This document shows positions 4,711 through 48,377 of a DNA stretch of 64,000 bases, in pieces; positions within the stretch are counted from its first letter, which is position 1; each line of letters opens with the position of its first letter. The notes beneath the pieces were generated by a model. The model was not told where the DNA came from. It searched no databases and saw only the letters and a program-made list of their open reading frames with translations. The DNA lies in the NCBI GenBank assembly GCA_964358705.1, contig CAYHPL010000004.1:62750-126749 (forward strand), given 5' to 3'. The position numbers and the translations under genes were made by a program. This DNA comes from an uncultured Chitinophagales bacterium. GTDB taxonomy: Bacteria > Bacteroidota > Ignavibacteria > UBA10030 > F1-140-MAGs086.

Positions 4711-4711
4711 T

Positions 4712-12500: not shown

Positions 12501-14457
12501 AACCTCTCCTATAATTGACTTCGTATTTATTCGCCGCTTTTCCTGCAACGATAGCGCCGCCGGTAATAGTGTTGTTTTCAAATGTAAGATTTCCGCCTTC
12601 TACAGTTGTAATCGCTTCAACGCCGCAATAATTATTTCCGCTGACGGAAACGTTCATTACGTCAATTGTTGTTCCTGTTTTGCGAACACGATTACTTCCA
12701 CGCACTTGGAGTTCGTATCTGTTTCCCGCTTTATTCTCTTTCGGAATTCCGGGATTGCAATCGGTACATTCGCCGGAAGTAAATAAGTTGTTATCGAATT
12801 TTACATCCGTGTAATCGGCAATATCAAACGTTCCATCTCCATCGGTAAAATGATTGTTTGAAATACTTAATGGCGCACCAGTCCAAAGTTCATCGTGAAC
12901 ATAATCTTGAAGCGCTAATCTACCAAGCGACATTCCGGAAATATTATTGTTATCAAACGTGAACGAGTGAACGCTCAATAACGATTCGGGAAGTGAAAAG
13001 AATGTTGGTTCGCTTAAAAATCCGCCGCTTTCGTAGTCAACAGTGTTGTTTGCAGTTCGGATTGCATCTACATTGGTCGGAAGTTCACTTCGTTTTGATT
13101 TTAACTGCATTGCAGAGGGTGAAGGACCAGTGAATGATGGCACGAGTGTAATAGTGTTTCCGATGGATTGAATTTTCGGAAATTTAATCGAGTCGAGAGG
13201 AATTCCACCAGTGTTTTCGTTATCGAATTCAATATCAATTCCTTTCGGAGTATTGGAAATGGTATTCCCGTCTATGCGATACGTAATATCGAAGAAACTA
13301 TCAACGTGCCAACCGCCGGCAATGGTTCGGATAGCGCTTCCTGTTCCATCGAGGTCAATCAAGTTTCCATACATTCCGACATCTTTATTCGGATTTCCAA
13401 CGACAGAAATTCCATCGCCGCCCGCCCAATAAATATCGTTGTCGTAAATAGTAATTTGGGTTTTTGCAAAAGCATCATTATCAATGGAAATATCAATTGC
13501 ATTTTCTGCGGGAGTAGAAGAAAATCGCGGCGTTCCGTTTTTGCCAAGAAGTTTTAACATCGAAGCGCTTGCACGTCTTGCTTTCTTTCCGCTCAAGGTA
13601 TTTGATGAACCGATAGTAATCGAGGCAAGATTATGCGCATTTGGAATATGCACGGAAGACGTATAAACGGAATCCACTCCACCGAGAATGTGAATTTCTC
13701 CGCCTTCTTCTGTATTGGTAATTACTGTTCCTACATCACAATACAATACGTTGTTATCTTGCTCTGTAATATTTGTTCCGCCGCTCACAGAAATTCCAGT
13801 TGTTGTTGCAGAACCGTAAACCGTGTTGCCTTCTATCATTGCAACTCCTGCTGTTGCAGATTTTGGTCCTGCGCAAGCAGAATATTCAATATTGATTGCA
13901 GTTGTCTGCACATTGATAATTAAACAACCAAAGACATTTACTATACCGCTGTTATCTGCGTGCACATCATATCCGCGTTCCGCGGTTGCTCCCGTAACGC
14001 CACCGCTTTGTATATACACATTACCGTTTTGTTCGCAATCATCAACACGGACTGCGGCTTTCCAGATTTCTGCAGGATTGGGAAACCAAATACAATTGTA
14101 AATCGTAATATCGCGAACTCCTTCGGCTTTAAATGCAATGGAATCGCTAACAAATCCTGGAGGAAGCTGTGAAATGTTGATTTCCGGTTTTTTACTGCCG
14201 CCCTGAAACATAGCAAAATAACCGGGTTGCGATGTTTGCGGATTTAGTTTCAGTTCAAAATCTGTATAAGTCGTATCCATCAGCATCAGCGAAACGGAAT
14301 CTGCGATACCGTTTGTATTGATGTCATCAAGTGCGACACGGAGCGTGGGATAATCGTAACCACCGCTGATGCCAACGGTTTTCGTTACGTTTGAAGCAAA
14401 ACTTGATTGCACGAACAGCGCAAGCAAGAGCGTTACGAATAGTATGAATTGTTTCAT
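9529..14457 (-). CDS. Giant secreted parallel beta-helix repeat protein + SdrD-B-like domain + conserved pre-CTD module + T9SS CTD (1642 aa)
   Basis: Signal peptide MKQFILFVTLLLALFVQSSFA. Short N/G/T-rich PbH1-like coils run throughout (NNTI.G, GNTF.N, NNSF.N). Seven ~64-aa repeats carry AGNKYEV.VRRGSK..KT. The SdrD-B-like segment reads ISGTVYNDADGDGTKDESESGLNGWSV. The CTD reads LTQNYPNPFNPQTAIGF...KKMMLMK. Confidence 0.8.
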   Translation of the reverse strand: MKQFILFVTLLLALFVQSSFASNVTKTVGISGGYDYPTLRVALDDINTNGIADSVSLMLMDTTYTDFELKLNPQTSQPGYFAMFQGGSKKPEINISQLPPGFVSDSIAFKAEGVRDITIYNCIWFPNPAEIWKAAVRVDDCEQNGNVYIQSGGVTGATAERGYDVHADNSGIVNVFGCLIINVQTTAINIEYSACAGPKSATAGVAMIEGNTVYGSATTTGISVSGGTNITEQDNNVLYCDVGTVITNTEEGGEIHILGGVDSVYTSSVHIPNAHNLASITIGSSNTLSGKKARRASASMLKLLGKNGTPRFSSTPAENAIDISIDNDAFAKTQITIYDNDIYWAGGDGISVVGNPNKDVGMYGNLIDLDGTGSAIRTIAGGWHVDSFFDITYRIDGNTISNTPKGIDIEFDNENTGGIPLDSIKFPKIQSIGNTITLVPSFTGPSPSAMQLKSKRSELPTNVDAIRTANNTVDYESGGFLSEPTFFSLPESLLSVHSFTFDNNNISGMSLGRLALQDYVHDELWTGAPLSISNNHFTDGDGTFDIADYTDVKFDNNLFTSGECTDCNPGIPKENKAGNRYELQVRGSNRVRKTGTTIDVMNVSVSGNNYCGVEAITTVEGGNLTFENNTITGGAIVAGKAANKYEVNYRRGSKVGKTTASDDTLTANVKNNHFCSVDVLIASEDVDMNFENNTATSGTAFAKATNKYELQFRRSSRFNKSESDSMFYASMKDNSFDGYDVTVNDTDVALVMTGNTFNNATPVFNKAGNKYEVSVRRGQRFSKTAFSEIQLVLEMADNDFSGGDVVFNVDDFVSTIENNTFNASSATNKAANKYEVNFRRGSKIGKTSSSVATVEDMFTYNNNSVIGYDVAISIDDSSDVASSVTMDGNSFDGIAPVSSKFPAGNKYEIAVRKSKNYQKTTSVGQEDFLTYTKNTHTNFGEGGLIGLEDVCATLDSNTFDGESANKMPAGNKYEVVARKSKNYQKTSSATEYCLAISNNSFTNLSDGGLLATLTNEADDTMNVGFGANTFSNNEGNGLEISIDSGSVTSTILKNIFADNTGNGILLRNEPRIDVWVNRFRAITEEDKFNNNGTNEFINNGGDGIHLEGNIVVEGLNYQNFSGNTGYNLYNGTPNDIDATNNWWGTTNAVTIAEKIYDRTDSVSFGTVDFTPFRAEEISSLTGTISGTVYNDADGDGTKDESESGLNGWSVILSSGGIAADTATTSESGEYSFNALELAEYSLAVVLQTNYVGTQNSDGAEVSFSTNNATVNFGVFADTYTFRTFKADVALTAKPVKLKYKSGALLEQPNTATVMENFFLRVGKLGATFLGYEQTGDAAKTHGWILYKKAADLGKMFTAAHTEKYYPIDSLRPTGKKAKKLSKAIKADKKTYNNIMWEQGIIFNLNMKASAKGITPKGFGALVLDTTFTLAGRQLERMTLSAIGKYMDSLMTYWDELNIDNADDYANLQSFAENILRPINTRFWTTFASTNYKVDSLGIVVRDDSVAGKKNVYAVTLLGALSANQSGIVKRIPGTKDETRMLATDGIIPTEFALTQNYPNPFNPQTAIGFSLLAVSNVSLKVYDVLGREVATLISNETMDAGIYNVSFDANIISSGVYFYRLTAKDVDTEEQFSSVKKMMLMK
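9811..10617 (-). other. Conserved uncharacterised pre-CTD module, copy in beta-helix protein
   Basis: FRTFKADVALTAKPVKLKYK...HGWILYKKAADLGKMFTAAH..YYPIDSLRPTGKKAKKLSKAIKADKKTYNN...FNLNMKASAKGITPKGFGALVLD...IGKYMDSLMTYW. Confidence 0.8.
11482..12738 (-). repeat. Seven in-frame tandem repeats (~190-215 bp, ~64 aa) inside the 1642-aa beta-helix gene
   Basis: Protein motif at aa ~578, 642, 705, 768, 832, 904 and 969: AGNRYELQVRGSNRVRKT, AANKYEVNYRRGSKVGKT, ATNKYELQFRRSSRFNKS, AGNKYEVSVRRGQRFSKT, AANKYEVNFRRGSKIGKT, AGNKYEIAVRKSKNYQKT, AGNKYEVVARKSKNYQKT. On the plus strand the string ttcatatttatttcc recurs with this period. Confidence 0.9.
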
Positions 14458-28273: not shown

Positions 28274-30778
28274 TTATTTCATCAACACCATTTTCATGGA
28301 TTTTACAAACGATACGCCGTTTTCTCCGTTTGCATTGAGACGATAAAAATACACACCGCTTGATAAGTAACTTGCATCAAATTGCAATTCGTGCGCACCT
28401 TCTTCCATCAGTTCATTATCCAAAAGCGTTGCCACTTCCTGACCAAGAACATCGTACACTTTCAGAGTTACTAATGATGAATTACTGATACCAAATGACA
28501 ACGTCGTTTGCGGATTGAAGGGGTTGGGATAGTTTTGCAGAAGAGAAAATTCATCCGGATTTTCATCTGATGATGTTATAAAATTCGTTTGCGCCTGTTT
28601 CCAGTTAGGGTTTTTTGCTACGATACCTACTTCATCTGGTGTTTTCACGCCGGAAAGTGTTACCGCATACGGTTTCTTTCCTGTTTTTACGAGAACTGAA
28701 TCTATCAGATAATTATCAAGCGACATAGTTTCATAGAATCCGCTATTTAAAATACTTAACAGATTAGCAAAGTTTCCAAGATTATTATATTCACTATCAG
28801 CGTTTGCACCTCCAATATCAAACTGTGCATACAAAGACATGAGCGAATCAAGATAATCTGCTATTGAGCGTAATGTCATACCTTCCAGTTCCTGACCGAT
28901 TAGAGTAAATGATGTATCGAGAACTAATTCTCCGAAACCGCTGGGTGTAACTCCATTATCGCAGGCAAGTATATTCAATCGCAAAAGAACACCTTGCGCC
29001 CATAGCGGATTATTATAACTTTTTCTTGTCGGTGTTATTGCTTTTGATAATACTTTGGATTTCTTGCCTGCTTTACGTACTGAATCTATCGGATACGATG
29101 ACCCTGTATGGAGGGCTGTATAAAATGCCTGAACAGATGATGCTTTTTTAAAGAGAAGCCAACTTTGTGTTTTAGCTTTTATTTTATCAGTTGTCGGAAT
29201 GCCAAGAAGTGTTGCACCGGCTTTTGGAACACCAGACAAAAAAACTTTTTCCAATACTGTTCCTTCGTTCGGTAATTCTGAAAGAATACCAGATTTTATT
29301 TTTAATTTAACTCCTTTTGAAGAAATAGCATTTATTGACTGTTGTGTAGATGCGCTGAATGTTCGAAACTTTCCCGATGAACCTAATTTAAATATTACTA
29401 AATCATAATCTTCAAAATTCTTGTTTTCCACAGTTATGCCATCAAAAGTTATTGTTTTACCGTAAAAATAACCTATAACAAAATTATTCCCTTTTGTGTC
29501 AACCGCAATACCGCTTAAATAATTACTCTGATTTGTTTGTACGTACTTTACCCATTTCATGCTACCGTTTGAATTATATTTAGCAACAAATATTATATTT
29601 CGATTGTTCGTATTTGTTAGTGATATCGCTCCAAAAATTGTTGTGAAAATATCTAGCTCTCCTGTTAGAAAAACATTCCCTATTGTGTCAACTGCGATGC
29701 TGTTATTAATATTACTATTTGCATAATCAACATAATTAATCCATTTAACATTTCCGGTACTATCGTATTTCATAATAAACATATTCCACTGACCATTATT
29801 TGTTGTTAATGTGGTGGAATCAAAAGTAATGGAATTACTGGCATAATATCCAGTCACATAGCAATTATTATTTAAGTCTATAGCAATATCGCATCCATAA
29901 TCTTCACTCATTCCTCCTCCTCTTTTTGCCCATAGAACATTTCCATCTGTATTAAATTTTACAATAAAAATATCACGAGCTCCGCTGCTATCATTTGTTA
30001 AGGTTTCTAAATTAAATTTGATGGTTGAACTCTCAAAAAATCCGGTTACATAACTATTTCCATCCCCGTCAGCTGCAATACCATTTCCATAATCATCCTT
30101 ATTCCCGCCTGCATTTTTTGCCCAAACAAAGTTACCATTAGAGTCATATTTTGCAATAAAAACATCATAAGTTAATCCAGTAGTATCATTATTTATTAGA
30201 GTTTCTGAGTCAAATGAAATTATTTTGTTGCCGAAAATACCAGTAACATAACTATTTCCACTTTTATCAACGCTGATACTACTACCCCATGCACTACCAT
30301 CACCTAGTGAATTTTTTGCCCATATTACATTCCCGTTAGAATCGTATTTAACTATAAAAACAGAAATGCCAATACCATGAGTTAACGTAGTCGTACCAAA
30401 TTGTATTGTTGGGCTATAGAAATAACCTGTTATATAAATATATCCATTTGCATCAACGGTAATGTCAATCCCTTGATCATCTCCATATCCCATGGAACCC
30501 TTTGCCCACACAACATTGCCGTTTATATCATATTTTGCTATAAATATTTGTATTCCGCTTGCAAAATTCGTTAATGTGATTGTTCCCAATGTAATTGTAG
30601 TGCTCGAAAAAGTACCAATAATGTAACTATTCCCATTTTTATCAACTGCAATACTTTTTCCAATTTCCTGAAGCGTGCCTCCAGCACTTTTCGCCCATTG
30701 CCAATCCGGAGTCTGTGATGAACTTTGAGTATTAAAAAATAAAATAATTATAAATAAAGTGAGAAAAATATGTTTCAT
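28274..30778 (-). CDS. Secreted SBBP-type beta-propeller repeat protein + conserved pre-CTD module + T9SS CTD (834 aa)
   Basis: Signal peptide present. About 9 repeats follow the pattern GNSY(V/I)TG.F.......F......D.FI(A/V)KYDSNGN..WAK. The shared module starts at FRTFSAST. The CTD reads LLQNYPNPFNPQTTLSF...KSMKMVLMK. Confidence 0.85.
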   Translation of the reverse strand: MKHIFLTLFIIILFFNTQSSSQTPDWQWAKSAGGTLQEIGKSIAVDKNGNSYIIGTFSSTTITLGTITLTNFASGIQIFIAKYDINGNVVWAKGSMGYGDDQGIDITVDANGYIYITGYFYSPTIQFGTTTLTHGIGISVFIVKYDSNGNVIWAKNSLGDGSAWGSSISVDKSGNSYVTGIFGNKIISFDSETLINNDTTGLTYDVFIAKYDSNGNFVWAKNAGGNKDDYGNGIAADGDGNSYVTGFFESSTIKFNLETLTNDSSGARDIFIVKFNTDGNVLWAKRGGGMSEDYGCDIAIDLNNNCYVTGYYASNSITFDSTTLTTNNGQWNMFIMKYDSTGNVKWINYVDYANSNINNSIAVDTIGNVFLTGELDIFTTIFGAISLTNTNNRNIIFVAKYNSNGSMKWVKYVQTNQSNYLSGIAVDTKGNNFVIGYFYGKTITFDGITVENKNFEDYDLVIFKLGSSGKFRTFSASTQQSINAISSKGVKLKIKSGILSELPNEGTVLEKVFLSGVPKAGATLLGIPTTDKIKAKTQSWLLFKKASSVQAFYTALHTGSSYPIDSVRKAGKKSKVLSKAITPTRKSYNNPLWAQGVLLRLNILACDNGVTPSGFGELVLDTSFTLIGQELEGMTLRSIADYLDSLMSLYAQFDIGGANADSEYNNLGNFANLLSILNSGFYETMSLDNYLIDSVLVKTGKKPYAVTLSGVKTPDEVGIVAKNPNWKQAQTNFITSSDENPDEFSLLQNYPNPFNPQTTLSFGISNSSLVTLKVYDVLGQEVATLLDNELMEEGAHELQFDASYLSSGVYFYRLNANGENGVSFVKSMKMVLMK
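28553..29368 (-). other. Conserved pre-CTD module, copy in SBBP protein
   Basis: FRTFSASTQQ..KGVKLKIK...QSWLLFKKASSVQAFYTALH..SYPIDSVRKAGKKSKVLSKAITPTRKSYNN...LRLNILACDNGVTPSGFGELVLD...IADYLDSLMSLY. Confidence 0.8.
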
Positions 30779-30820
30779 TGTTCTATTGTTTTTATGTTTT
30801 GGGAAATTAATTTACTATAA

Positions 30821-30862
30821 CGAAAAGATGCTGCGCACCCGATTCGAAAGGCACGCAGCATC
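30821..30862 (-). terminator. Terminator after the FG-GAP cargo gene
   Basis: Minus strand: GATGCTGCG-(18 nt)-CGCAGCATC followed by TTTTCG. Confidence 0.6.
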
Positions 30863-30873
30863 TCGTTTCTATT

Positions 30874-33800
30874 TTATTTCATCAACACCATTTTCATGGA
30901 TTTTACAAACGTCGCGCCGTTTTCTCCCTGCACATTGAGCCGATAAAAATACACGCCGCTTGATAAACGACTTGCATCAAATTGCAATCCATGCGTGCCT
31001 GCTTCCATCAGTTCATTATCCAAAAGCGTTGCTACTTCTTGTCCGAGTACATTGTATATTTTCAACGTTACTAATGACGAATTACTAATACCAAATGACA
31101 ACGTCGTTTGTGGATTGAAGGGATTGGGATAGTTTTGGTCAAGTCGAAATTGCAAAGGACTTGAAAAAATTTCCGTTTCTTCTTTGGGAATTTCTACCAG
31201 TCGTTTAAGGAAACCTATTTCTCCCGCAGAACGCGCTCCTTGCAATTTTACTCCGTATGGATTCTTTTTAACAACAACTTCTACGGAATCAATATCCTGC
31301 AACGTGAGACTGTCATAAAATGCTTCATTGATACCTCGCAGAACGGAATCACTGAACGTATAAAGTTGCTGCCGCGCATCGGTGTTGGTGAATCCTTTTT
31401 TATTAAAGTACGTCATTACAGTATCAAGCAGTTTTCCAATTTCTTTGAGCGTAACACCGCGTAGCTCTCTTCCTGCGAAAGTAAAATCTGCATCGTACAA
31501 AAGGTTGCCAAGCGTTGGCGGTAAAACAGAATCTTCGCTTGCTTCAAGATTGAATTTAAAGAGGAATCCTTGCTCTATTGCAATATTATTATAATTCTTT
31601 CGATTGGGTTTCAATGCTTTTAATAATTTTTTCACTTTGGAATTTCCATTATCATCGCGGGCAACATCAAAAGGAAATGCTAATTCATTTTCATTGGTAT
31701 GTGCTGATGTGTACAATTGTGTCATATCCGATGCTTTTTTATACTCAGCCCATCCATAAAATTTTGCTGAATCAAGACGTTTGATTCCTAATACAAGCGA
31801 ATTTGTTTTTCCGAATTTTTTAAATTGCGCTTCTAATACCGTTACCCAGTTTGGCGCATTCGGTACGCCTGCAATGTATTTTATTTTGCTGGCTTTTCCG
31901 GTTAATGCAATATTTGCTCCGGTTTTTACCGTGCGGAAAAATACCGGGTCATCGGGAAGATTTCCAAAATTGATGCTGGAAATTTCCTGACCGGCATCCA
32001 GAGTTTTATTATACGCACGTTGTCCGTCACCATACGGAGTAACATCTGTACCGGGTTTTGGCGCGCTCTGCTTCCAAAATGTCAGCAGACTTTCTTTAAT
32101 CGTGTACGTTCCTTCCGGAAGATTTGCAATAACAAAACTGCCGTTAATATCTGTTTCCGTCGAATACGATTTCCCACTGTTTACGGCGGTAACGCTCCAG
32201 TTCTTGAGTCCTTTTTCACTTACTGTAAGCAGACTGTCGCCGTTTTTATCGTTGAATATTTTCCCTGAAATTGATTGTACATTTTCATTTAACAAAATAG
32301 AAACGGTATTGGAACTTTGATTCACGACTGCAAAATCAATATCGCGGTCGCTGTCAAAATCGCCATACGAAATAGCAACGGGTTCACTGCCGACAGTAAC
32401 AGTTGTTACAGAATCGAAAGTGAGTTCGCCGCCATTGTACAAAACAGAAATACTGTTTGCACTGGAATTCGCAGTGATAATATCCGTCATTCCATCGCCA
32501 TTCACATCCGCGGTAAAAATAAAGCGCGGACTTGTATTTAAGGAAACTATAACGGTAACGGAATCTGCGCCCGAAAATGTGCCGCCATTGAAATTTTTGT
32601 GAATATAAATTTTATTTTCATTACTTGCGGCAACAAGAACATCAACATATCCATCATTATTCATATCGCCCGTTGCAACAGAAGAGGGACGGCTTCCTGT
32701 ACTAATTATTCCTGACTGCGTAAAGTTTCCCCTTTTTAAATTGCTGACTACTGATACTCTGTTTGAAAGTAAATTAGCAACTGCCAAATCAATACAGCCA
32801 TCATTATTGAAATCATCGGTGGCAATGGAAATCGGAAGCGAACTTACGCTTGTACTATCACCAGCTGAGAATGCAAAATTTCCGTCATTGTGTAAAACGC
32901 GAAGATTTGTTGAGAGGTACAGCGACGTAACAAGGTCCACAAATCCGTCATTATCAAAATCGCCGGCAGTAAGCGCGAACGGGTCTGTTCCTGATATTGT
33001 AGCGACGGGAACAGTTGCTCGTAAAGTAAAAGTACCCGTGCCGGAATTCTCATAAATAGAAACGGTATTACTTCCTGAATTTGCAACGGCAATATCAAGT
33101 ACGTTATCATTATCGAAATCCGCCGCCGCAATGCCCTGTGGACGTGTTCCGGTATTTATTGTTCCGCCAGCAGAAAATTTATTGCTCACGGAATCATAAA
33201 TTAACAATGCAAGTGTATTGGAACTTTGATTTGCTACAATCAGGTCAAGATAATTATCGTTATTGAAATACCCTGCAACCACTGCAACCGGTTTTGTTCC
33301 GCCCGATGAATAATTCGAATCGAGAACAAATATTCCTTTTCCGCCGACTGATTGTGCAGTAAACTTCCAGGAATATCCGCCCAATAATGTATCTCCGTTT
33401 TGCGTAAGAACTTTATTATTCATTACTACGCTAACCTGTTCGCCAAGTGAAAAGTCTTTGGCGGGATTAAATGAAAAAGAATTTGTACTTGCGGACAACG
33501 CTCCTGAAAATTTTCCGGAGAATGAGCCCTGAACAGTTACATTTGATGTATTGATTGAATTCGCATTCATATCATCATCAAATTCTGCTCTGAACGGAGC
33601 GTCTTGTTGCACATTTATTTCTCCGTTTACCGGTGTTGTGTTATCAACTAAATTGACCGGCGTATTGCGTAAAAAATATATGGAATTGGGACCGCCAAGA
33701 ACAACATCAATATCTCCATCGCTATCAAAATCCGCTGAAATTATTGCAAACAGTGAGTCATCAACTACCATTGATTTTTTTGTAAACTCACCATTGCCAT

Positions 33801-35100
33801 CATTGTAAAAAAATGTAACGTTGCTGGAACTCATAAAATGTGAAAAAGCAATATCCATATTCCCATCATTATCAAAATCACCTTTCGTAACCATCTCTGA
33901 TTTTAATGCAATAGCAGAATTGCTATCCGACAAAAAAACTCGGTTTCCTGCATTTCTATGAAACGTATAATTTCCGGAAAATTCATTTGCCAAAATAATA
34001 TCTGCATCTCCATCAGAATCGAAATCCGCAGAGACGGATGATGCGCTTATTTTTGTTGCGGGATATGTTATTTTGTCAACCGGGGCGCTTCCGTTGTTCC
34101 ACACGCCTAATGTAAAATATTGATTAGAGCCAAACATTATATCTGCATCACCATCATTATCAAAATCATTTGTTGCAATGCTGTACGGTCTTGCATCATT
34201 AAATCCTGTTATCGTGTTCGTTACAGCAAACGTACCCAATCCATCATTCGTAAGCACTGATACATTTAAAGCGTCGTGATTTCCCACCACAAGGTCCATA
34301 TCTCCATCGTTATCCCAATCAAGCGATGCAATATTATTAGAAAAACTGCCAACGTTAATTGTATCTGATGGAGTGAACGCTCCGTTTCCATTATTCAGCA
34401 CGACAATAACATTATTTGAAATCTGATTTGCAACAGCAATATCAAGTTTTCCATTATTATCAAAGTCCGCCGCGCAAATTCCCGCGGGCTCTTTACCGAC
34501 CGGAATGGTTGCCATTACAGTAAAATCTTCGTTTCCGTTGTTTTGCAACACCGTTACGGAACTATCCGAAATATTTGAAACAGCAATGTCAATATCGCCA
34601 TCACCATCAAAATCACCGGGCACCAATCGTGAAACAGAGAAATTAAATTTTATTCTCTTGGAGTAATAAAAATCTCCATATCCTTTTGTTGTCGCAATAG
34701 TGAACTTCCAGAAATATCCGGTTGTCAAACTATCGCCATTCGCATTTTTAATTTGTTGCGTAAGTGATACTGAAACATCTTCTCCAGTAACAAAATCGTT
34801 TGCTGGATTAAATGTAACATCGGAATTGCCATTGCTGAAGGCATAAGTTCCGGAATGATGTCCGCTGAGATTGCCTTGCACGACAAACGTACTGTTTGTA
34901 ACCGAAGCAGTATTCAACGCACTGTTAAAGGATACTTGAATATTCGCATTTTTTGCGATGTGTAATGCGTTCATTGTTGGAGTAACAGAGCTCACTGTTA
35001 CCTGCGCATACAATACATTGCTAATGGATTGTATTAAAAAAAGTACGAATGTTGCAGCAAGCAAATTAATACCTGTAACTATTTTGCAAAAAGACTTCAT
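30874..35100 (-). CDS. Secreted Big_5(SbsA-Ig)-like + FG-GAP/VCBS repeat protein + SdrD-B-like domain + conserved pre-CTD module + T9SS CTD (1408 aa)
   Basis: Signal peptide present. Two Ig-like segments (VSSVTPTMNA..., VDNTTPVNGE...). About 20 repeats of the (G/A)DFD.DG..D(I/L) type (GDFDGDGDIDIAVSN, ADFDNNGKLDIAVAN). The SdrD-B-like segment reads ISGKIFNDKNGDS..GLKNWSV..TDINGSFVIANLPEGTYTIKE. The CTD is nearly identical to that of 28274..30778. Confidence 0.85.
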   Translation of the reverse strand: MKSFCKIVTGINLLAATFVLFLIQSISNVLYAQVTVSSVTPTMNALHIAKNANIQVSFNSALNTASVTNSTFVVQGNLSGHHSGTYAFSNGNSDVTFNPANDFVTGEDVSVSLTQQIKNANGDSLTTGYFWKFTIATTKGYGDFYYSKRIKFNFSVSRLVPGDFDGDGDIDIAVSNISDSSVTVLQNNGNEDFTVMATIPVGKEPAGICAADFDNNGKLDIAVANQISNNVIVVLNNGNGAFTPSDTINVGSFSNNIASLDWDNDGDMDLVVGNHDALNVSVLTNDGLGTFAVTNTITGFNDARPYSIATNDFDNDGDADIMFGSNQYFTLGVWNNGSAPVDKITYPATKISASSVSADFDSDGDADIILANEFSGNYTFHRNAGNRVFLSDSNSAIALKSEMVTKGDFDNDGNMDIAFSHFMSSSNVTFFYNDGNGEFTKKSMVVDDSLFAIISADFDSDGDIDVVLGGPNSIYFLRNTPVNLVDNTTPVNGEINVQQDAPFRAEFDDDMNANSINTSNVTVQGSFSGKFSGALSASTNSFSFNPAKDFSLGEQVSVVMNNKVLTQNGDTLLGGYSWKFTAQSVGGKGIFVLDSNYSSGGTKPVAVVAGYFNNDNYLDLIVANQSSNTLALLIYDSVSNKFSAGGTINTGTRPQGIAAADFDNDNVLDIAVANSGSNTVSIYENSGTGTFTLRATVPVATISGTDPFALTAGDFDNDGFVDLVTSLYLSTNLRVLHNDGNFAFSAGDSTSVSSLPISIATDDFNNDGCIDLAVANLLSNRVSVVSNLKRGNFTQSGIISTGSRPSSVATGDMNNDGYVDVLVAASNENKIYIHKNFNGGTFSGADSVTVIVSLNTSPRFIFTADVNGDGMTDIITANSSANSISVLYNGGELTFDSVTTVTVGSEPVAISYGDFDSDRDIDFAVVNQSSNTVSILLNENVQSISGKIFNDKNGDSLLTVSEKGLKNWSVTAVNSGKSYSTETDINGSFVIANLPEGTYTIKESLLTFWKQSAPKPGTDVTPYGDGQRAYNKTLDAGQEISSINFGNLPDDPVFFRTVKTGANIALTGKASKIKYIAGVPNAPNWVTVLEAQFKKFGKTNSLVLGIKRLDSAKFYGWAEYKKASDMTQLYTSAHTNENELAFPFDVARDDNGNSKVKKLLKALKPNRKNYNNIAIEQGFLFKFNLEASEDSVLPPTLGNLLYDADFTFAGRELRGVTLKEIGKLLDTVMTYFNKKGFTNTDARQQLYTFSDSVLRGINEAFYDSLTLQDIDSVEVVVKKNPYGVKLQGARSAGEIGFLKRLVEIPKEETEIFSSPLQFRLDQNYPNPFNPQTTLSFGISNSSLVTLKIYNVLGQEVATLLDNELMEAGTHGLQFDASRLSSGVYFYRLNVQGENGATFVKSMKMVLMK
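31153..31938 (-). other. Conserved pre-CTD module, copy in FG-GAP protein
   Basis: FRTVKTGANIALTGKASKIKY...YGWAEYKKASDMTQLYTSAH...FPFDVARDDNGNSKVKKLLKALKPNRKNYNN...FKFNLEASEDSVLPPTLGNLLYD...IGKLLDTVMTYF. Confidence 0.8.
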
Positions 35101-35167
35101 AGTAATTGTTCTTTCTTTGAATTGTGATTAAATAATGTAAGTAAATAAAAATTGAGATGGCATTGTT

Positions 35168-37396
35168 TTATTTCATCAACACCATTTTCTTTGTCTGTAC
35201 AAACGAAACACCGTTTTCTCCCTGCACATTGAGCCGATAAAAATACACGCCGCTTGATAAACGACTTGCATCAAATTGTAATTCGTGTACGCCTGCTTCC
35301 ATCAGTTCATTATCCAAAAGCGTTGCTACTTCCTGACCAAGAACATCGTACACTTTCAGCGATACATTCCCGGCGTCCAACAATGAAAATCCAATAGCCG
35401 TTTGCGGATTGAAGGGATTGGGGTAGTTTTGAAGTAATGCAAATTGAGATGGCTCTGTTTCATTTTGTGAGTAAGCATGGCTTGTTGTTTGTTTCTCGGA
35501 AAGTGTGCGCATCAAGTAATCAACACTGCTAATTTCAATAAGCCCCTTCAATTTCAAAACTCCATTGCTGATGGAATCACCGTTGGATAATAAAATGGTG
35601 GTATCAAAAGCACTATTAACATTGTTGAGAACCAAGCGCAGAGTTTCTAACGCAGAATCGCCAATGGATACAAATGTCGAATCAAATAATGGTTTTGATT
35701 TATAATATGTAAGAACTGTATCAACATAATTGGAAATTTGCATAAGAGATGAACCATTCCATGGGCTTCCTGAAGAAACATAAATGAGAGAATCAAAACC
35801 AGTTGGTGTTACTCCTTTGATGCTTGAAGCAAGATTTAACTTAAACAAACCAAACGCCTGAACAAATGGATTGGTATATGTTTTTGAACTTATCATTACT
35901 TCTTTTATGAAACGTTTTTTCTTGCTTGACCCTTCTTTCCTTACTGTATCAAAAGGAGCGTTGTACTTCGCATTCGTTTGTAATTCTGTGTAGAATTTTC
36001 CAAAATCTGCACCTTTTTTAAACCGTACCCAACCAAAATTTTTTGCCGTATTTTTATCTGTCTGTGGAATTCCAAGCACTAAACCACTCTTACCACCATA
36101 ACGAGCGATTGCTGTATCGCGCCAATTGGCAACATTTGGTACAACCGCAGGTTTTCCTGCTTTATTAAGCTTGTTCGGTTTTACTGAAACATTCGTTGAA
36201 AGTGAAAATGTCCTGTATTTTATAGAATCATAACTACATTGAAAATTCGCAGGAATAGTATCAATTGCAGCCAGTTCAGTTACAAGTGTTCCAGTAGATG
36301 AACTATTCAATCCACCAGCAACTAACAATTTTTCAGTTGAAAGTAGTGCTGTTATATGGTCAGAATGTTTTTGATTCATTTCCGGACCTGGTAACCATTC
36401 ATTCGTATTGGGATTATATATCTCTGTTAAATTAAGTGGTCCAGATTGATTACTTCCACCACACACTATAACTAAACCAGATGGCAGAATGGTTGCAGTA
36501 TGTCTTGCACGTGGCACGCACATTGGTGAAGCATCTGTCCAAATACCAGTATTGGGATCATATATTTCTACAGTTCGCGTCGTAGTTAATTTTTCATCTC
36601 CGTCAGATGAAATAAAACCTCCAATAACTAAAACTTTTCCTGATAACAACAAAGTTGCAGTATGACCTAAGCGCGAAAAATGCATAGAGCTTGTTAAAGA
36701 CCACGCTCCGGTTTGGGGGTCAAACAATTCTGCTGAGTTTCTGAAAATATATGGATTGCGTTGAGCGCCTCCTGCAACTAATACTTTGGTTGACTGCAAA
36801 AGTGTGGCAGAATGTCCCGCCCTTGACTGTATCATTTGCTCAGTCGTAGTCCATTGATTACTTGTACGATTATATATTTCTGCAGTTTTATATGTACTTC
36901 CACAACATGTTCCATCATATCCTCCCGCAAGCAATACTTCGCCGGATGATAATAGCGTTAAGGAAGAACTATATCTTGAAATTGATGGCACTCCGGTGAT
37001 AATCCATTCATCTGTTATTTCACTATATAAATATCCTGTTGGAGGAGACGATGGAGTATCTTCTCCGACAACTAATATTTCATCTGTTGTAAGTTTTAGT
37101 GCATGCAAACGGTGAGGGGATGGCATAGAATTCGCCTGAGTCCATAATTCTGTCGTTGGGTCAAATATATAAGCATTGGATGAATAAACAACACCAGGTT
37201 GTGTATAACCACCAACTACAAGTATTTTTCCTGATGGCAATGTTGCTGAACCTGGATAAATGTAACCATCTTGCAGAGGAGAACTTGTTTGCCAAGAATG
37301 AATTTGAGCATGAGAAATAAAAGATATAAATAATAGTAAAACGCCGCATGTAAGCATGGAAAAAAGATTCCATGAAATAAATCGAAGTAAATTCAT
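35168..37396 (-). CDS. Secreted Kelch-repeat beta-propeller protein + conserved pre-CTD module + T9SS CTD (742 aa)
   Basis: Signal peptide present. Six or seven blades carry the Kelch signature (.R..H.AT.L..GKVLV.GG: SRAGHSATLL, SRLGHTATLL, PRARHTATIL, KHSDHITALL). The module starts at YRTFSLST. The CTD reads LLQNYPNPFNPQTAIGF...TKKMVLMK. Confidence 0.85.
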   Translation of the reverse strand: MNLLRFISWNLFSMLTCGVLLLFISFISHAQIHSWQTSSPLQDGYIYPGSATLPSGKILVVGGYTQPGVVYSSNAYIFDPTTELWTQANSMPSPHRLHALKLTTDEILVVGEDTPSSPPTGYLYSEITDEWIITGVPSISRYSSSLTLLSSGEVLLAGGYDGTCCGSTYKTAEIYNRTSNQWTTTEQMIQSRAGHSATLLQSTKVLVAGGAQRNPYIFRNSAELFDPQTGAWSLTSSMHFSRLGHTATLLLSGKVLVIGGFISSDGDEKLTTTRTVEIYDPNTGIWTDASPMCVPRARHTATILPSGLVIVCGGSNQSGPLNLTEIYNPNTNEWLPGPEMNQKHSDHITALLSTEKLLVAGGLNSSSTGTLVTELAAIDTIPANFQCSYDSIKYRTFSLSTNVSVKPNKLNKAGKPAVVPNVANWRDTAIARYGGKSGLVLGIPQTDKNTAKNFGWVRFKKGADFGKFYTELQTNAKYNAPFDTVRKEGSSKKKRFIKEVMISSKTYTNPFVQAFGLFKLNLASSIKGVTPTGFDSLIYVSSGSPWNGSSLMQISNYVDTVLTYYKSKPLFDSTFVSIGDSALETLRLVLNNVNSAFDTTILLSNGDSISNGVLKLKGLIEISSVDYLMRTLSEKQTTSHAYSQNETEPSQFALLQNYPNPFNPQTAIGFSLLDAGNVSLKVYDVLGQEVATLLDNELMEAGVHELQFDASRLSSGVYFYRLNVQGENGVSFVQTKKMVLMK
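35447..36217 (-). other. Conserved pre-CTD module, copy in Kelch protein
   Basis: YRTFSLSTNVSVKPNKLNK...FGWVRFKKGADFGKFYTELQ..YNAPFDTVRKEGSSKKKRFIKEVMISSKTYTNP...FKLNLASSIKGVTPTGFDSLIY...ISNYVDTVLTYY. Confidence 0.8.
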
Positions 37397-37522: not shown

Positions 37523-37556
37523 TTTGGCAGTCAATACAACGAAAGTTGTATTTTTG
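37523..37556 (+). promoter_or_regulatory. Candidate Bacteroidota-type sigma-A promoter for the oxidoreductase gene
   Basis: TTTG (37523..37526), then a 22-nt spacer, then TAttTTTG (37549..37556), matching the -33 TTTG / -7 TAnnTTTG consensus described for Bacteroidetes. It lies about 110 nt upstream of the ATG. Confidence 0.4.
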
Positions 37557-37667
37557 CATTCGTGTGATTTTACCCAAAATCTCCTTTTCTGCAATTCTTC
37601 GCTCCCTTTTCCTACTCCATTACTCCCGCTTTTCTTATCTTTTGCCCGCAATTTTTTAAAATGGACA

Positions 37668-43424: not shown

Positions 43425-44168
43425 ATGCAACACCATCCGATATTTTCAATTCGCTTACGGGAATTGCCAACAGAAATAAAACTTCTCGTAACATTTTTCC
43501 TCTTAACGCTGGGCGCGGGATATTGTATTTCGCTCATCAATCTGAACTATCAGTACAGCATGCTTGACGGAGAACCGGGCGTAACTCCCGCAGATATGAA
43601 GCGTGCGTTTTTCGGAGACCGCACCAATACACGGCTAGCGGCAAAAATCAGCGGCGGCAGTATGGAGCAATATCTTCCGAATCCCGCGGATAAAAATGTT
43701 ATTTTAAACTGGATACAGGATGGCGCGAATGAACATAATTTTGCGTCAGTGCAAAAAATTATTCATCGCAATTGCGTACGCTGCCACAGCGATGATGGCA
43801 TAATGTCGCAGCGTCCATTTATGCAATACAGCGACATAATGACGGTGGTAAAAATTGACCGCGGCGAACCGCCTTCACTGTGGGCGCGCGTTGCACATAC
43901 ACACATTCAGGCAATCGGAATGATTTTATTTTTACTTGGCATTATTTTTACTTTCTCCTCCATCTCCTCTAAAATAAAAATAATTACAATTTGTGTTCCG
44001 TTTGTTGTACTCGTATTGGATTTTGCCTCCCGCTATCTTGCAAAATACAACGCAGATTTTGTGTACGTTATGATGGGAACAGGCGCAATGCTTGGTCTTT
44101 CAATCGGTACGATGATTATTGTTTCTCTTTGGGAAATGTGGCTGAAAAAAAAGGAGCAATTATTTTAA
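43425..44168 (+). CDS. Integral membrane protein with a single CXXCH (haem c-type) motif in an extracytoplasmic loop
   Basis: TM1 is LLVTFFLLTLGAGYCISLI. The loop contains IIHRNCVRCHSDDG. Three more TM helices follow. I placed the start at ATG 43425 (MQHHPIF); the upstream ORF part overlaps the terminator of the preceding gene. Confidence 0.6.
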   Translation: MQHHPIFSIRLRELPTEIKLLVTFFLLTLGAGYCISLINLNYQYSMLDGEPGVTPADMKRAFFGDRTNTRLAAKISGGSMEQYLPNPADKNVILNWIQDGANEHNFASVQKIIHRNCVRCHSDDGIMSQRPFMQYSDIMTVVKIDRGEPPSLWARVAHTHIQAIGMILFLLGIIFTFSSISSKIKIITICVPFVVLVLDFASRYLAKYNADFVYVMMGTGAMLGLSIGTMIIVSLWEMWLKKKEQLF

Positions 44169-47100
44169 TAACAACAGTTTCTTTGTTTCTGCTTTTTCAC
44201 CGGCGATAAGTTTGTAGTAATACACACCGCTGGGCAACATACTTGCATTGAACTCGATTGTGTGTTCGCCTGCATCCATTACTTCATTATGCAATAATGT
44301 TGCAACTTCCTGCCCAAGTACGTTATAGATTTTCAATGTAACATTACCAAAAGCCAACAGCGAAAAGCCAATAACTGTTTGAGGGTTGAATGGATTCGGA
44401 TAGTTTTGCTCGAGTATAAAATCATCTGCTACTGTTTCGTTAGTAAAGGAATTTAACGGCTCAGTTTTTCCATTGGGAAGTTTTTGCAGTTTTGGAAATG
44501 TATAGAGCGCAATTGTTCCGGGAAATTTTAATCCCGCGTTTGCTACTATCGAATCCCCGTTGACGAATGATATCGAAGTATAAAATGCTTCGTTGATTCC
44601 ATTCAACATTTTTCTCAATTGTTCTAATTCTGTTGCACCTGCAATCGCAAAACTTCCATTCGGTAATTGTTTCCATGCATATTTGGAAAGAAGGGTATCA
44701 ACTGCATTTGCAATTTGCGAAAGTGTTTTTCCGCTCCACATACTTGCAGCATCACTATAGGTGAGTGAATCTAATCCCGATGGTGTAATGAATTTTCTGC
44801 TCGCATACAGGTTCAGTTTAAATACACTAAACGCCTGCGCAAGCGGGTTCGTGTAACTTTCCGAAGTTGGCTTCAGTTCTTTCAAAAATTTTTTCTTTTT
44901 CCCAGACCCGGCTTTTCTCACCGTATCGAATGGCGCATTGTACAAAGAATCTGTTTGCAGCGATGTATAAAATTTTCCAAAATCAGTTCCCTTTTTGAAA
45001 CGAATCCATCCGTATTTTTTTAAAGAATCTTTATTCGTTTCAGCAATACCAATGACGATGCCTGCTTTACTATCAAATCGCGAAATCACCGTATCGCGAA
45101 AATTAGCGACATTCGGTAATGCGGCTGGGCGGGCGGATTTCACTTTGAGTTTATTGGGTTTTGCAGAAAATGCAACTTCGGTTTTGAACGTTCTGTATTT
45201 CACTAAATCCGTTAATGGAATTTCGTAATTGTATCCGAAATTTTTTCCGCTTGCATTGGTGTTGGAAGTAATAACGACCGTATAAAAAGAAAATTCTGTT
45301 GGTTGTGTTTGAATCCAGAGCGATTGTGATTGCGCAGAAATCTGATACGTTCCCGATAATAAATCGGAAAAAAAGTAATTGCCATTGGTATCAGAAATTG
45401 TGCTGTCGAGGAGGAGAATATTCTGCGACAGATAAATTTTTCCGGATGTCAACGCAGTGTCATTTCCATTAAATATACCGTTGCTATCAATATCGTGATA
45501 GAGTTTACCGCTGATGTTTCCCAGTTTAAACACGCCAAAATTATTTCCTGTGGAATAACTGTTGCTCTGCATCGTTATTGAATATGTTTCGGGAGAAGTG
45601 GGAAGAGTTTGTATCCAATTCATTGGAGGAATTTCTTCGAGAGAATACTCTCCTGCAAGTAAGTTGCTGAAAATATAATTGCCGTCTTCATCCGTAAGTG
45701 TCGAATCATTTTCTGCGCCGCTCAATGTTATTTTCCAATCGGAAAGCCCAAGTTCATTTTCCTCTTTTGTACCATCGCCATTGACATCATTAAATACTGT
45801 TCCCGTAATCGTTCCAACAGCAAAGTTCGCAAAATTTTTATCTGCAACATTTTCTCCTGCGTTCAAAGTAATATTATACTCATTGCTTTCCGGAAAAGTG
45901 ATAATCCAATTGCTTTGTATTTCTTCGCTCATAGAATAGTTTCCAACAATTAAATTTGAAAAGGTATAATTTCCGTTTTCATCTGTAAGCGTCGTTTCAT
46001 TCATTGCTCCGGAAAGAAAGACTTTCCATTGTAATAAACCGCCGTCCTCACTATCTAATGTTCCATTACCTTCGACATCGTTAAATACTTTTCCGCTAAT
46101 TGATGCCGGAAGTCTGTTCCCAAAATATCTTCCTGTAAAATTACTGCCACTAAAGATAGAACAAGAATACGTCCCGTTCCCGGTAGGAAATGTTTGTATC
46201 CAATCAGGTTGCTGAATCTCGTGAATCGAATAATTTCCTACAACGAGGTTTTGAAAAGTATAATTACCATTTGCATCTGTGAGGAGGGTATCATTTCGTG
46301 TTCCGTTCAGAATTATTTTCCAGTTTTGTAATCCTGCTTCACCGTTATCAATATTACCATTTGCATTTACGTCATGAAATTTTTTTCCCGCAATCGTGCC
46401 CAGCTGAAAACTGCCGAAATTTTTATTTGAAAAAGTACCGCCGCTCTGTATCGTTACGGCGTAAAATGTTGGTGCAGCAGGAAAAGTTTGTATCCATCCC
46501 GTTCTGGTTTCTGCCGTGATGTTGTACGTTCCGTATGATAAATTAGAAAACAAGTAATTCCCCTCTACACTTGATAAAAGGGAATCTACAACCGTATTAT
46601 TCTTTTTGAGATAGATTTTCCATTGTGCAATGGTATTTTCTGCATTACCAAAAATGCTGTCCCCGTTGCTGTCATTAAAAATGCTTCCGCTAACAGTTCC
46701 TAAATGAAAATTGCCAAAGTTTTTATTGGTTGCACTATCTGTTCCTGTCAGTGTTATAGAATATGTTGTCGGCAATGTTGTTTGCGTCCATCCGGTGGGA
46801 ATAGATTGTGTGAGGATATAGTTTCCTCCTGCTAAATTTGAGAAGCGGAATGTTCCGTTTCCGTCGGTGATAACCGAATCTGTTTTTGTGCCGCTTAATT
46901 TAATTTTCCACTGCGTAATTCCATTCTCACTAATATCTTTAATTCCATTGCCATTTATATCATTAAAAATATTTCCGCTAATTGAACTTGCAAATACCTG
47001 TTGTTGTAATTGAAACGCAAACGTATCCGGCGAAACTGTTTCATTGAAGTCATCTGTCGTTGTGATGTTCCATTTATAATTTTGCGACGGCTGAAATTGA

Positions 47101-48377
47101 GAAGTCAATGTAAAATTATATGTACTGTCCAATGCTTTTACTGTTGTATCTACACCGGGACCGAAAATATGCAGGCGATAGTAATGCGGGTCATTGGAAA
47201 TATTTGCCGTGCGGTTCCAGCGAAATGTAATATTCGCATTTAGTTGAAACGTAGAATTTTCTGCCGGAGAAATATTGTAAACCACAACACGCGCTCTCAA
47301 CGAATCGTGCGTAAACACATACGTGCCTGTTTGCAAATCCGATGCAATTATTTTTCCCGAAGGAAAATACGGATACACACCCCATACACCATCGTAGCCG
47401 CCGCTGTTTCCCGGATACGAATCGTATGAGCCCGCCGTTGCAGGATTGTTCGGGTCACGAATATCCACGGCAACTGTTCCTGCCGTGTACCACGCAACAT
47501 ACGCATACTTTCCGCGCACGGTTACGTTATGCACAATGTCTGCAGGATTGATGGAGTACGTCATAGCAGGCGATGATGGCGGCGTTGGAAGCGAAGATAA
47601 ATCCCAGAACTTTAAATTTTTATTTGTACTGCCGATTTCATCGGTGGAGATTACATATTTGCCGTCTGCTGTTGTCCACGTATTGTGCGTACCGGAACCG
47701 CTGTATGTAATGCGTGCAATAAGTGCAGGAGAAGTTTTATTCGCAACATTCACAATATCCACGCCGCCGTTGCTATAGACAGCCGCTGCAAACATCGTAT
47801 CGTTACGCACGTAACTATCGTGTATATACCGTTGCGCATATTCACCCTGAAATACAGGCGCAGTCGGATTGGCAAGGAGTGAAAATATCAATACGCCGCC
47901 CGGACTCCAGTTTGCACATCCGTTGAGATACAAATAGCCGTCAAAGATTTCCAGCGAGTGTGCTTTCTGTGTATGCTTTGCGCCGCTTGTATAAACATAA
48001 GAAGTTACAAGCGATGCAGAAGTGGGAAGATTGGAGAGGTCAATTATTTGCATTCCGCTGCCGCCTTCCGTTACTACATACGCATAATTTTTATACGTGC
48101 GGATTTCTCGCCATATCGAAGAAGGTCCGCTGATGAATGCGACTTCGGTTGCGCCGGTGGTTATATCAATGATTGCTGTTCCGGTATATGTGCCGACTAT
48201 TGCATATTCTTTTCCATTGGGCGCAGTCCATCCCCAACAGCCGCTGTATGCATCCGTTCCGCTTTGTCCGTGCTTTTGGTCGAGATGCGCGAACAGCGAA
48301 ATGCCATTGGGCGGAAGTGCAAACGTAGTACCGCATAAAATGAAAATGCTTAAAAAAATATAGATACATAGTTTCAT
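44160..48377 (-). CDS. Secreted LVIVD-repeat (choice-of-anchor-B-like) beta-propeller + Ig-like + 6x SdrD-B-like repeats + conserved pre-CTD module + T9SS CTD
   Basis: N-terminal segment DAYSGCWGWTAPNGKEYAIVGTYTGTAIIDIT. LVIVD-like blades (AYVVTEGGSGMQIIDLSN, AVYSNGGVDIVNVAN, AYVAWYTAGTVAVDIRDPNNP). Six ~97-aa repeats ISG.(I/V)FND.NG(N/D)G......GL..WK(I/V).L.G...TD.NGNY.FSNL..G.Y. CTD LEQNYPNPFNPQTVIGF...TKKLLLLK. ATG 48377 (MKLCIYIF...) is preferred over TTG 48404. Confidence 0.85.
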   Translation of the reverse strand: MKLCIYIFLSIFILCGTTFALPPNGISLFAHLDQKHGQSGTDAYSGCWGWTAPNGKEYAIVGTYTGTAIIDITTGATEVAFISGPSSIWREIRTYKNYAYVVTEGGSGMQIIDLSNLPTSASLVTSYVYTSGAKHTQKAHSLEIFDGYLYLNGCANWSPGGVLIFSLLANPTAPVFQGEYAQRYIHDSYVRNDTMFAAAVYSNGGVDIVNVANKTSPALIARITYSGSGTHNTWTTADGKYVISTDEIGSTNKNLKFWDLSSLPTPPSSPAMTYSINPADIVHNVTVRGKYAYVAWYTAGTVAVDIRDPNNPATAGSYDSYPGNSGGYDGVWGVYPYFPSGKIIASDLQTGTYVFTHDSLRARVVVYNISPAENSTFQLNANITFRWNRTANISNDPHYYRLHIFGPGVDTTVKALDSTYNFTLTSQFQPSQNYKWNITTTDDFNETVSPDTFAFQLQQQVFASSISGNIFNDINGNGIKDISENGITQWKIKLSGTKTDSVITDGNGTFRFSNLAGGNYILTQSIPTGWTQTTLPTTYSITLTGTDSATNKNFGNFHLGTVSGSIFNDSNGDSIFGNAENTIAQWKIYLKKNNTVVDSLLSSVEGNYLFSNLSYGTYNITAETRTGWIQTFPAAPTFYAVTIQSGGTFSNKNFGSFQLGTIAGKKFHDVNANGNIDNGEAGLQNWKIILNGTRNDTLLTDANGNYTFQNLVVGNYSIHEIQQPDWIQTFPTGNGTYSCSIFSGSNFTGRYFGNRLPASISGKVFNDVEGNGTLDSEDGGLLQWKVFLSGAMNETTLTDENGNYTFSNLIVGNYSMSEEIQSNWIITFPESNEYNITLNAGENVADKNFANFAVGTITGTVFNDVNGDGTKEENELGLSDWKITLSGAENDSTLTDEDGNYIFSNLLAGEYSLEEIPPMNWIQTLPTSPETYSITMQSNSYSTGNNFGVFKLGNISGKLYHDIDSNGIFNGNDTALTSGKIYLSQNILLLDSTISDTNGNYFFSDLLSGTYQISAQSQSLWIQTQPTEFSFYTVVITSNTNASGKNFGYNYEIPLTDLVKYRTFKTEVAFSAKPNKLKVKSARPAALPNVANFRDTVISRFDSKAGIVIGIAETNKDSLKKYGWIRFKKGTDFGKFYTSLQTDSLYNAPFDTVRKAGSGKKKKFLKELKPTSESYTNPLAQAFSVFKLNLYASRKFITPSGLDSLTYSDAASMWSGKTLSQIANAVDTLLSKYAWKQLPNGSFAIAGATELEQLRKMLNGINEAFYTSISFVNGDSIVANAGLKFPGTIALYTFPKLQKLPNGKTEPLNSFTNETVADDFILEQNYPNPFNPQTVIGFSLLAFGNVTLKIYNVLGQEVATLLHNEVMDAGEHTIEFNASMLPSGVYYYKLIAGEKAETKKLLLLK
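44424..45197 (-). other. Conserved pre-CTD module, copy in LVIVD/SdrD protein
   Basis: YRTFKTEVAFSAKPNKLKVK...YGWIRFKKGTDFGKFYTSLQ..YNAPFDTVRKAGSGKKKKFLKELKPTSESYTNP...FKLNLYASRKFITPSGLDSLTY...IANAVDTLLSKY. Confidence 0.8.
45225..46982 (-). repeat. Six in-frame tandem ~290-bp (~97-aa) SdrD-B/CarboxypepD_reg-like repeats
   Basis: Each repeat opens with ISGNIFNDINGNG, VSGSIFNDSNGDS, IAGKKFHDVNANG, ISGKVFNDVEGNG, ITGTVFNDVNGDG or ISGKLYHDIDSNG, and contains TD.NGNY.FSNL..G.Y. Confidence 0.9.

Follow-up and report, generated by a model that had tools for sequence, protein, structure and literature searches.

An undescribed basic domain beside the type A sorting signal of type IX secretion cargo in Ignavibacteriota-like bacteria

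Five genes in a 64-kb stretch of contig CAYHPL010000004.1 (the window, by which we mean the whole stretch analyzed) encode proteins that end in a type IX secretion system (T9SS) sorting domain of type A, here called the C-terminal domain or CTD. Directly ahead of the CTD all five share a domain that we refer to as the module. The five module-bearing genes, g1 to g5, lie on the minus strand, and each of the five open reading frames (ORFs) given by the original prediction is present in the ORF list. The first, g1 (9529..14457), codes for 1642 amino acids (aa) arranged as a signal peptide, a repeat-rich head, one SdrD_B domain, the module, and a type A CTD. Three tandem genes follow. The head of g2 (28274..30778, 834 aa) is an SBBP beta-propeller (Pfam E 1e-22). 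That of g3 (30874..35100, 1408 aa) consists of two Big_5 domains, FG-GAP/VCBS repeats, and an SdrD_B/CarboxypepD_reg-like spacer (Big_5 twice and FG-GAP_3 in Pfam, E 4e-79), and that of g4 (35168..37396, 742 aa) is a Kelch beta-propeller (E 9e-38). Each of the three continues into the module and a type A CTD. So does g5 (44160..48377, about 1405 aa), in which a choice-of-anchor B/LVIVD head and six SdrD_B repeats come first. LVIVD and the six SdrD_B stretches were matched in Pfam, and choice-of-anchor B was matched in NCBIfam as TIGR04312. With lengths of 742-1642 aa the proteins do not deserve the word giant that was at first applied to them.

The heads had been assigned correctly for g2 to g5, while the parallel beta-helix proposed for g1 found no family support. 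Apart from its one SdrD_B domain, the g1 head has no Pfam or NCBIfam match. Between aa 579 and 971 (window 11545-12724) it carries seven repeats of about 63 aa, also without a match in either library. The repeats start with the basic motif [AP][AG]N[KR]YE[VIL]..R[RKG]....[KT], which alternates with NN.F-type turns, and the repeat-rich head may be a candidate beta-helix.

By inspection, all five proteins have the hydrophobic N-terminus with preceding Lys/Arg that marks a Sec signal peptide. The longest ORF of g5 reaches a TTG at 48404, but the ATG at 48377 is preferable because a canonical signal peptide, MKLCIYIFLSIFILCGTTFA, results. As had been claimed, each protein ends in a CTD. All five score above the curated cut-offs of both sorting-domain models, with 35.4-38.4 bits for PF18962 (cut-off 27) and 32-38.6 bits for TIGR04183 (cut-off 23). 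By CTD score and signal peptide, the five proteins are thus predicted T9SS type A cargo.

The segment between the last recognized domain and the CTD is 262-277 aa long, including a linker, and can be aligned end to end in all five proteins. In g1 the module is encoded at 9805..10626 (aa 1278-1551) and has about 250 structured residues followed by a low-confidence linker of about 25 aa to the CTD. The other copies, likewise on the minus strand, are at 28547..29377 in g2 (aa 468-744), 31147..31947 in g3 (aa 1052-1318), 35441..36226 in g4 (aa 391-652), and 44418..45206 in g5. The ranges first proposed agree with these boundaries to within 6-9 nucleotides (nt), and the sequence landmarks listed with them are found in the alignment of the five modules. 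Pairwise identity is 30-51%, with BLASTP E values of 1e-22 to 1e-89, so the five segments are homologous, as was proposed. Two subtypes can be told apart: subtype A in g1, g2, and g3, and subtype B in g4 and g5, whose modules are 51% identical to each other. A profile of the modules searched against the six-frame translation of the window returned exactly these five copies. Chance or compositional similarity is ruled out by the BLASTP values together with the conserved columns of the 627-member family described below.

Like the original prediction, we could assign the module to no named family. None of the five modules gave a match reaching the curated cut-off in Pfam-A (2025) or NCBIfam 20.0 at E≤10. 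Scanned singly against Pfam and NCBIfam at E≤1, 58 diverse members of the family produced scattered weak matches, each in one member only. A profile of the 58 module sequences had no match among PDB sequences at E≤10. In public records the members of the family are annotated by head or CTD alone ('T9SS type A sorting domain-containing', 'VCBS repeat-containing', 'hypothetical'), and the module was not found described in the literature covered by full-text searches. With the PDB fold search also empty (below), an already known domain is ruled out. Neither of the two outcomes that would have overturned the original prediction, a match to a described domain or segments too dissimilar to align significantly, was seen.

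AlphaFold modeling of the g1 module with the alignment of 58 sequences gave a predicted local distance difference test (pLDDT) score of 93.7 and a predicted template modeling (pTM) score of 0.92. This model supersedes one made with 11 sequences, which had a pLDDT of 65 and meaningless Foldseek matches. In the model, five long helices and several short strands make up a compact alpha/beta domain, and the module is accordingly not the stalk it was thought to be. The final 25 or so residues before the CTD have a pLDDT of 56-62 and are therefore read as a flexible linker. We conclude that the module is an autonomous, globular alpha/beta domain of about 250 residues that has not been described before.

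Foldseek found no neighbor of the pLDDT 93.7 model in the PDB (best E 4.7, TM 0.13). The sole structural neighbor was in BFVD, a 606-aa 'Ig family protein' of Tupanvirus deep ocean (A0A6N1NZ86; E 2e-4, probability 1.00). Its TMq of 0.49 over all 274 aligned columns is below the usual same-fold threshold, sequence identity is 13%, and the root-mean-square deviation is 6.8 Å. This protein is uncharacterized and carries no functional information. The likeness may reflect horizontal transfer or bacterial contamination, with the protein possibly of bacterial origin. No relative of the module turned up in the IMG/VR viral contigs, which leaves a viral origin without support. As far as Foldseek can tell from the PDB and BFVD libraries, the predicted fold is new.

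An exhaustive hidden Markov model search covered 1.84 billion cluster representatives. At E≤1e-3 it retrieved 627 of them, of which 321 stay at a cut-off of 1e-10 and 109 at one of 1e-30. A word-indexed protein search had given only 5-6 matches, even with wide alignment, and it was the exhaustive search that revealed the family. Architecture was counted in the best 150 matches, of which 117 span the whole module. In all 117 the CTD directly follows the module, and each protein has exactly one module. The tail after it has a median length of 94 aa (range 49-122), while the region before it varies from 16 to 4,870 aa. A Pfam survey of 46 members found Por_Secre_tail in 45, and 59 different head families in total. 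These include SdrD_B, CarboxypepD_reg, ASH/HYDIN/Cep192-type Ig, Flg_new_2, FG-GAP, Sortilin/BNR, SBBP, and GSDH; one further family member has a PLD-like head. The strict association with type A CTDs and the very diverse, mostly beta-rich heads that had been predicted from the window therefore hold across the family. The architecture is always a signal peptide, a variable acidic head, one basic module, a flexible linker of about 25 aa, and a type A CTD. Heads this varied are the mark of a modular family for surface display.

Every named member comes from a metagenome-assembled genome (MAG) of Ignavibacteriales, Ignavibacteriae, or Ignavibacteriota, or from a MAG labeled 'Bacteroidota bacterium', the taxonomic breadth being that of the named cluster members only. 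The window, too, belongs to an Ignavibacteriales bacterium, its leucyl aminopeptidase being 77% identical to the one in an Ignavibacteriales MAG. The module thus marks out, in Ignavibacteriota-like bacteria, a class of type A T9SS cargo restricted to that lineage, and what is new is a domain family that marks a sub-class of cargo, the T9SS itself being already known. That the module is a real, new, CTD-coupled domain family is in our judgment close to certain.

The module was called Lys-rich, and it is: lysine makes up 8.7-11.4% of the five window copies versus 2.5-5.2% of the remainder of each protein. The isoelectric point (pI) of these copies is 9.1-9.8, and that of the rest of the protein 4.2-5.2. 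The same opposition is seen across the family. Module pI has a median of 9.68 and exceeds 8.5 in 116 of 117 members, with a median net charge of +14, and head pI has a median of 4.57 and is below 6 in 101 of 106. The charge is concentrated in the N-terminal half of the module (residues 1-120). Over the stretch aligned to residues 92-116, every one of the 58 aligned members is net positive (+2 to +9), and 18 of them have a Cardin-Weintraub-type polyanion motif there, compared to 2.1 ± 1.3 in shuffled sequences.

Mean column identity in the 58-sequence alignment is 31%. The invariant or near-invariant positions are R5, T6, P31, G53, W66, D91, K101, N116, N128, S132, L144, D170, N202, F205, and G241, among them the polar or aromatic R5, W66, D91, N116, N128, S132, D170, and N202. 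The absence of any conserved His, Cys, Glu, or Tyr speaks against a conventional hydrolase. At about position 82, subtype A has a His where subtype B has Gln.

The window codes for 12 type A cargo proteins, of which five have the module and seven do not, so the module is not required for T9SS export as such. We also compared the CTDs. Those of the tandem genes g2, g3, and g4, encoded at 28274-28546, 30874-31146, and 35168-35440 on the minus strand, are 76-88% identical in protein and 85-86% in DNA, whereas the modules next to them share only 33-36% identity. One 17-nt string, GTCGTTTATCAAGCGGC, is repeated without change at 35265-35249 and at 30971-30955. Module and CTD thus evolve independently, and the CTDs appear homogenized, which suggests gene conversion or concerted evolution confined to the sorting signal. 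The CTD nearest to that of g1 (70%) belongs to a module-less cargo, and the nearest CTD to this cargo's own is that of g4 (75%). Since the CTDs intermix regardless of the module, a separate CTD subclass for module-bearing cargo is ruled out and the module belongs to the cargo, not to a special signal.

A dedicated partner gene was likewise not found. Related loci, retrieved with a search based on conserved patterns, numbered only 3 from genomes and 12 from metagenomes. No PorP/SprF- or PorV-like barrel or shuttle recurs in about 13 non-redundant loci, and Pfam annotation of the neighbors in loci L001-L005 gave no PorP/SprF-like gene. Cargo with type B CTDs and a PorP/SprF shuttle is a different group, the CTDs here being type A. 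The suggestion of a new T9SS-associated domain or system therefore stands for the domain, which is homologous among the proteins and unrecognized, and falls for the system, given the lack of a partner gene and of a CTD subclass. None of the T9SS machinery (SprA/Sov, PorV, PorU, PorZ, GldKLMN) is encoded in the window; according to PMC11285876, Ignavibacteriota probably have a T9SS.

A 486-aa type A cargo without the module is encoded at 2384-3844 on the plus strand. The CTD is its only recognizable domain and is closest (75%) to that of g4.

The module and CTD can also occur with almost no head. Only three complete proteins of this kind with a signal peptide were found (P0004, P0005, and P0120). 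Most other short-headed matches are N-terminally truncated fragments, and an abundance of minimal members is thereby ruled out. A minimal protein has a signal peptide, about 65 aa, the module, and the CTD. In three independent loci its gene lies 14-21 nt downstream of a gene for a fiber-like protein that has a signal peptide but no CTD, the two-gene cassettes spanning 2113-5600 in locus L001, 5443-8687 in L004, and 5577-9071 in L018. The fiber proteins of L001 and L004 have a common N-terminal domain of about 125 aa, that of L001 also has a Peptidase_S74 chaperone domain, and the upstream protein of L018 belongs to the same BLAST family. The cassette may be an anchor-plus-fiber pair or may serve piggy-back secretion, and it suggests that module and CTD can also be used as a separate anchor subunit.

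T9SS cargo is normally described as functional domains plus a CTD. The closest counterpart to the present arrangement is RgpB, a gingipain of Porphyromonas gingivalis, which also has a Sec signal peptide, functional domains, a domain just before the CTD, and a type A CTD. According to PMC11285876, the RgpB pre-CTD domain is functionally coupled to the CTD. By analogy, one would expect the window cargo to mature by cleavage at the CTD boundary and to become attached to anionic lipopolysaccharide (LPS) (PMC10202324). The gingipain pre-CTD domain is a small Ig-like beta-sandwich, whereas the module is predicted to be an alpha/beta domain of about 250 aa with five long helices and no Foldseek match in the PDB, and so lies outside this immunoglobulin superfamily (IgSF) group. 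Unlike the gingipain domain, it is strongly basic and common to hundreds of otherwise unrelated cargo proteins.

The KLIKK proteases of Tannerella forsythia are similar in being clustered, paralogous T9SS cargo with differing functional domains, a common pre-CTD extension, and near-identical CTDs (PMC4404884). Conservation in these proteases is limited to a 30-aa region A and the CTD, and the 140-160 aa in between are variable and protease-specific (PMC4404884). In the present family the whole pre-CTD region of about 250 aa is conserved across paralogs and genomes, which by the published definition (PMC4404884) sets it apart from KLIKK-type extensions.

SLH domains and the N-terminal S-layer/LPS-binding domain of Caulobacter RsaA anchor proteins non-covalently to envelope polymers. 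They would be comparable to the module in proposed mechanism only, as a constant envelope-adjacent module that binds an anionic or glycan polymer with the functional part facing outward. They are not coupled to a T9SS CTD and have no sequence or fold likeness to the module.

How might such a domain act? Our tentative answer, which we rate somewhat below an even chance, is that the module would retain the protein on the cell and orient the acidic head outward. Sec would export the protein, the T9SS would translocate it by means of the CTD, and a PorU-type sortase would remove the CTD within the flexible linker. Cleavage there would make the module the C-terminal, membrane-proximal domain of the mature protein, beside the glycolipid attachment point. 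With its net charge of about +14, and with two conserved Lys/Arg clusters beside invariant Arg, Asp, Asn, and Trp, it would bind the anionic surface of the outer membrane, be it LPS or a negatively charged surface glycan. The module would then be a cationic pedestal that holds the protein on the cell with the acidic head pointing outward.

Several observations are consistent with this. In g2 and g4 the junction between head and module is only a few residues long, which favors cleavage on the CTD side. In P. gingivalis PorU cleaves at the CTD boundary and attaches the cargo to anionic LPS (PMC10202324, PMC4804311), and if that paradigm applies the module most likely stays on the mature protein after removal of the CTD. 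We infer that a globular base of charge +14 next to an anionic glycolipid surface, combined with an acidic head, would form a coherent device for retention and orientation. Choice-of-anchor domains, the class to which the g5 head is assigned, occur on surface-anchored proteins, and the g5 head would count as support for surface anchoring. Stand-alone module-plus-CTD proteins paired with CTD-less fibers would also fit an anchor role.

Other observations weigh on the opposite side. The stand-alone argument rests on three loci only because most short-headed members are truncated. PorU, PorV, PorZ, and an anionic LPS are presumed for the host, none being encoded in the window. Only the 18 of 58 members mentioned above have the strict polyanion motif. 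Caps and turns of the structure may simply account for several of the invariant Asn, Asp, and Gly positions, and the basic clusters were read from the sequence rather than from the model surface, with the proposed ligand binding deduced from them. A wider version of the anchoring proposal seems doubtful to us. In it the module, as a cationic domain of new fold, would decide between retention and release of type A cargo by binding an anionic glycolipid near the sortase attachment point, it would mark a dedicated surface-display class in Ignavibacteriota, and its stand-alone form would anchor the CTD-less fibers encoded just upstream and perhaps carry them piggy-back across the outer membrane.

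Given the strict coupling to the CTD (117/117) and its unvarying position, the module might instead act while the cargo is being secreted or attached. The module could dock the cargo to a lineage-specific PorV/PorU/PorZ-like component or stabilize the CTD during export, and so govern the processing of the cargo instead of its later surface binding. It always adjoins the CTD, in one copy per protein with a fixed tail of about 94 aa, and among the full matches it never occurs without one. There is a precedent in that disrupting the interaction between the CTD and the preceding domain blocks RgpB secretion (PMC11285876), and the module would then resemble the RgpB IgSF domain, which has to pack on the CTD. 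The way PorU selects between releasing and attaching its substrate is also still an open question (PMC10202324). We nevertheless consider a co-factor of this kind unlikely. The seven module-less type A cargo proteins of the window, the CTDs that do not partition by module presence, and the homogenization of the tandem CTDs independently of the modules all speak against it, as do the low-confidence linker of about 25 aa between the two domains and the lack of a recurrent shuttle- or porin-like neighbor in about 13 loci. If the shared domain instead associated laterally, the cargo could co-assemble into a common coat or S-layer-like lattice with the variable heads on top. Many paralogs per genome combine variable heads with a single constant, compact domain beneath, the module is in some cases nearly on its own, and T9SS-secreted S-layer proteins exist in Tannerella, as cited in PMC8869499 and PMC4404884. 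Modules of the same genome are, however, only 30-51% identical and of two subtypes, which would make a poor shared interface, and a uniform net charge of about +14 would disfavor homotypic packing without a polyanion. A lattice is thus improbable.

The opposite charges of module and head, consistent across the family, also raise the idea that the module aids solubility or folding within its own protein, as a charge-balancing periplasmic chaperone for the very acidic heads. It would then have no surface role and might be removed with the CTD, beside which it sits at the C-terminal end. The heads belong to at least 59 unrelated fold families, though, and in other proteins many of these fold with no such partner. 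Window cargo that lacks the module has similar BNR/Sortilin-type heads, and the module is retained even in the nearly headless minimal proteins. The head-module junctions of g2 and g4 are also too short for an exposed cleavage site while the linker between module and CTD is flexible. This role is highly improbable. Least credible of all, and in our view very remote, is an enzyme fused to targeting heads and acting, for example, on a surface glycan or lipid. The compact alpha/beta fold and the polar residues that are invariant or nearly so in 58 sequences (R5, D91, N116, N128, S132, D170, and N202) are what one could expect of a catalytic domain. The pattern of conservation leaves no Ser-His-Asp-type triad, as there is no conserved His, Cys, Glu, or Tyr and the subtype A His near 82 is Gln in subtype B. 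No likeness in sequence or fold to any enzyme was seen in Pfam, NCBIfam, or the PDB. Catalytic domains do not typically keep one fixed place next to the CTD, and enzyme-like domains are already found among the heads (GSDH, PLD-like).

What decides between retention and release of type A cargo is explicitly described as unresolved (PMC10202324). A basic pre-CTD module on a subset of the cargo (5 of 12 in the window), coupled to the CTD in more than 600 clusters, is a testable candidate for retention and orientation in a little-studied phylum. A Pfam/InterPro model at the level of a domain of unknown function is warranted and would help to annotate hundreds of proteins that now go by 'T9SS type A sorting domain-containing' or hypothetical alone. 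Should anchoring be confirmed, the module could also be used as a display scaffold.

Module genes are often in tandem elsewhere as well, with two to three in several other loci compared to five in the window. Nine type A cargo genes of the window form a same-strand island of about 33 kb (4712-37396, minus strand). Directly downstream of the tandem trio g2-g4, in the same island and on the same strand, are two Reg_prop/Y_Y_Y sensor histidine kinase genes (20704-23757 and 25009-28080). Response regulators are encoded there at 14551-14919, 19948-20694 (LytTR), and 24294-24923 (LuxR). These kinases and regulators are candidate regulators of the module genes because the same families also flank module genes in three other loci (L015, L018, and L020). 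A scan for sigma-70 promoters was uninformative, with 37 sites versus 34.6 expected. Terminator-like hairpins lie downstream of g2 (28225-28193) and g3 (30864-30825).

The remaining genes of the window include several with little or no family assignment. Between g4 and g5, on the plus strand, the one family match of a 1260-aa protein (37524-41306) is a weak Pyr_redox_2 region (aa 472-717). An ORF of 294 aa (43284-44168, plus strand) without a Pfam match overlaps the stop region of g5, on the opposite strand, by 9 nt at its 3' end. The minus-strand region 57851-63082 encodes a 1105-aa CTD cargo with no other recognizable domain, followed by a 360-aa ORF of no family and a CHAP-domain protein (62276-63082). 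At the other end of the window, on the plus strand, is the R subunit of a type I restriction enzyme (8-2308; SWI2_SNF2, T1R_D3-like, and ResIII), apparently truncated by the window start.

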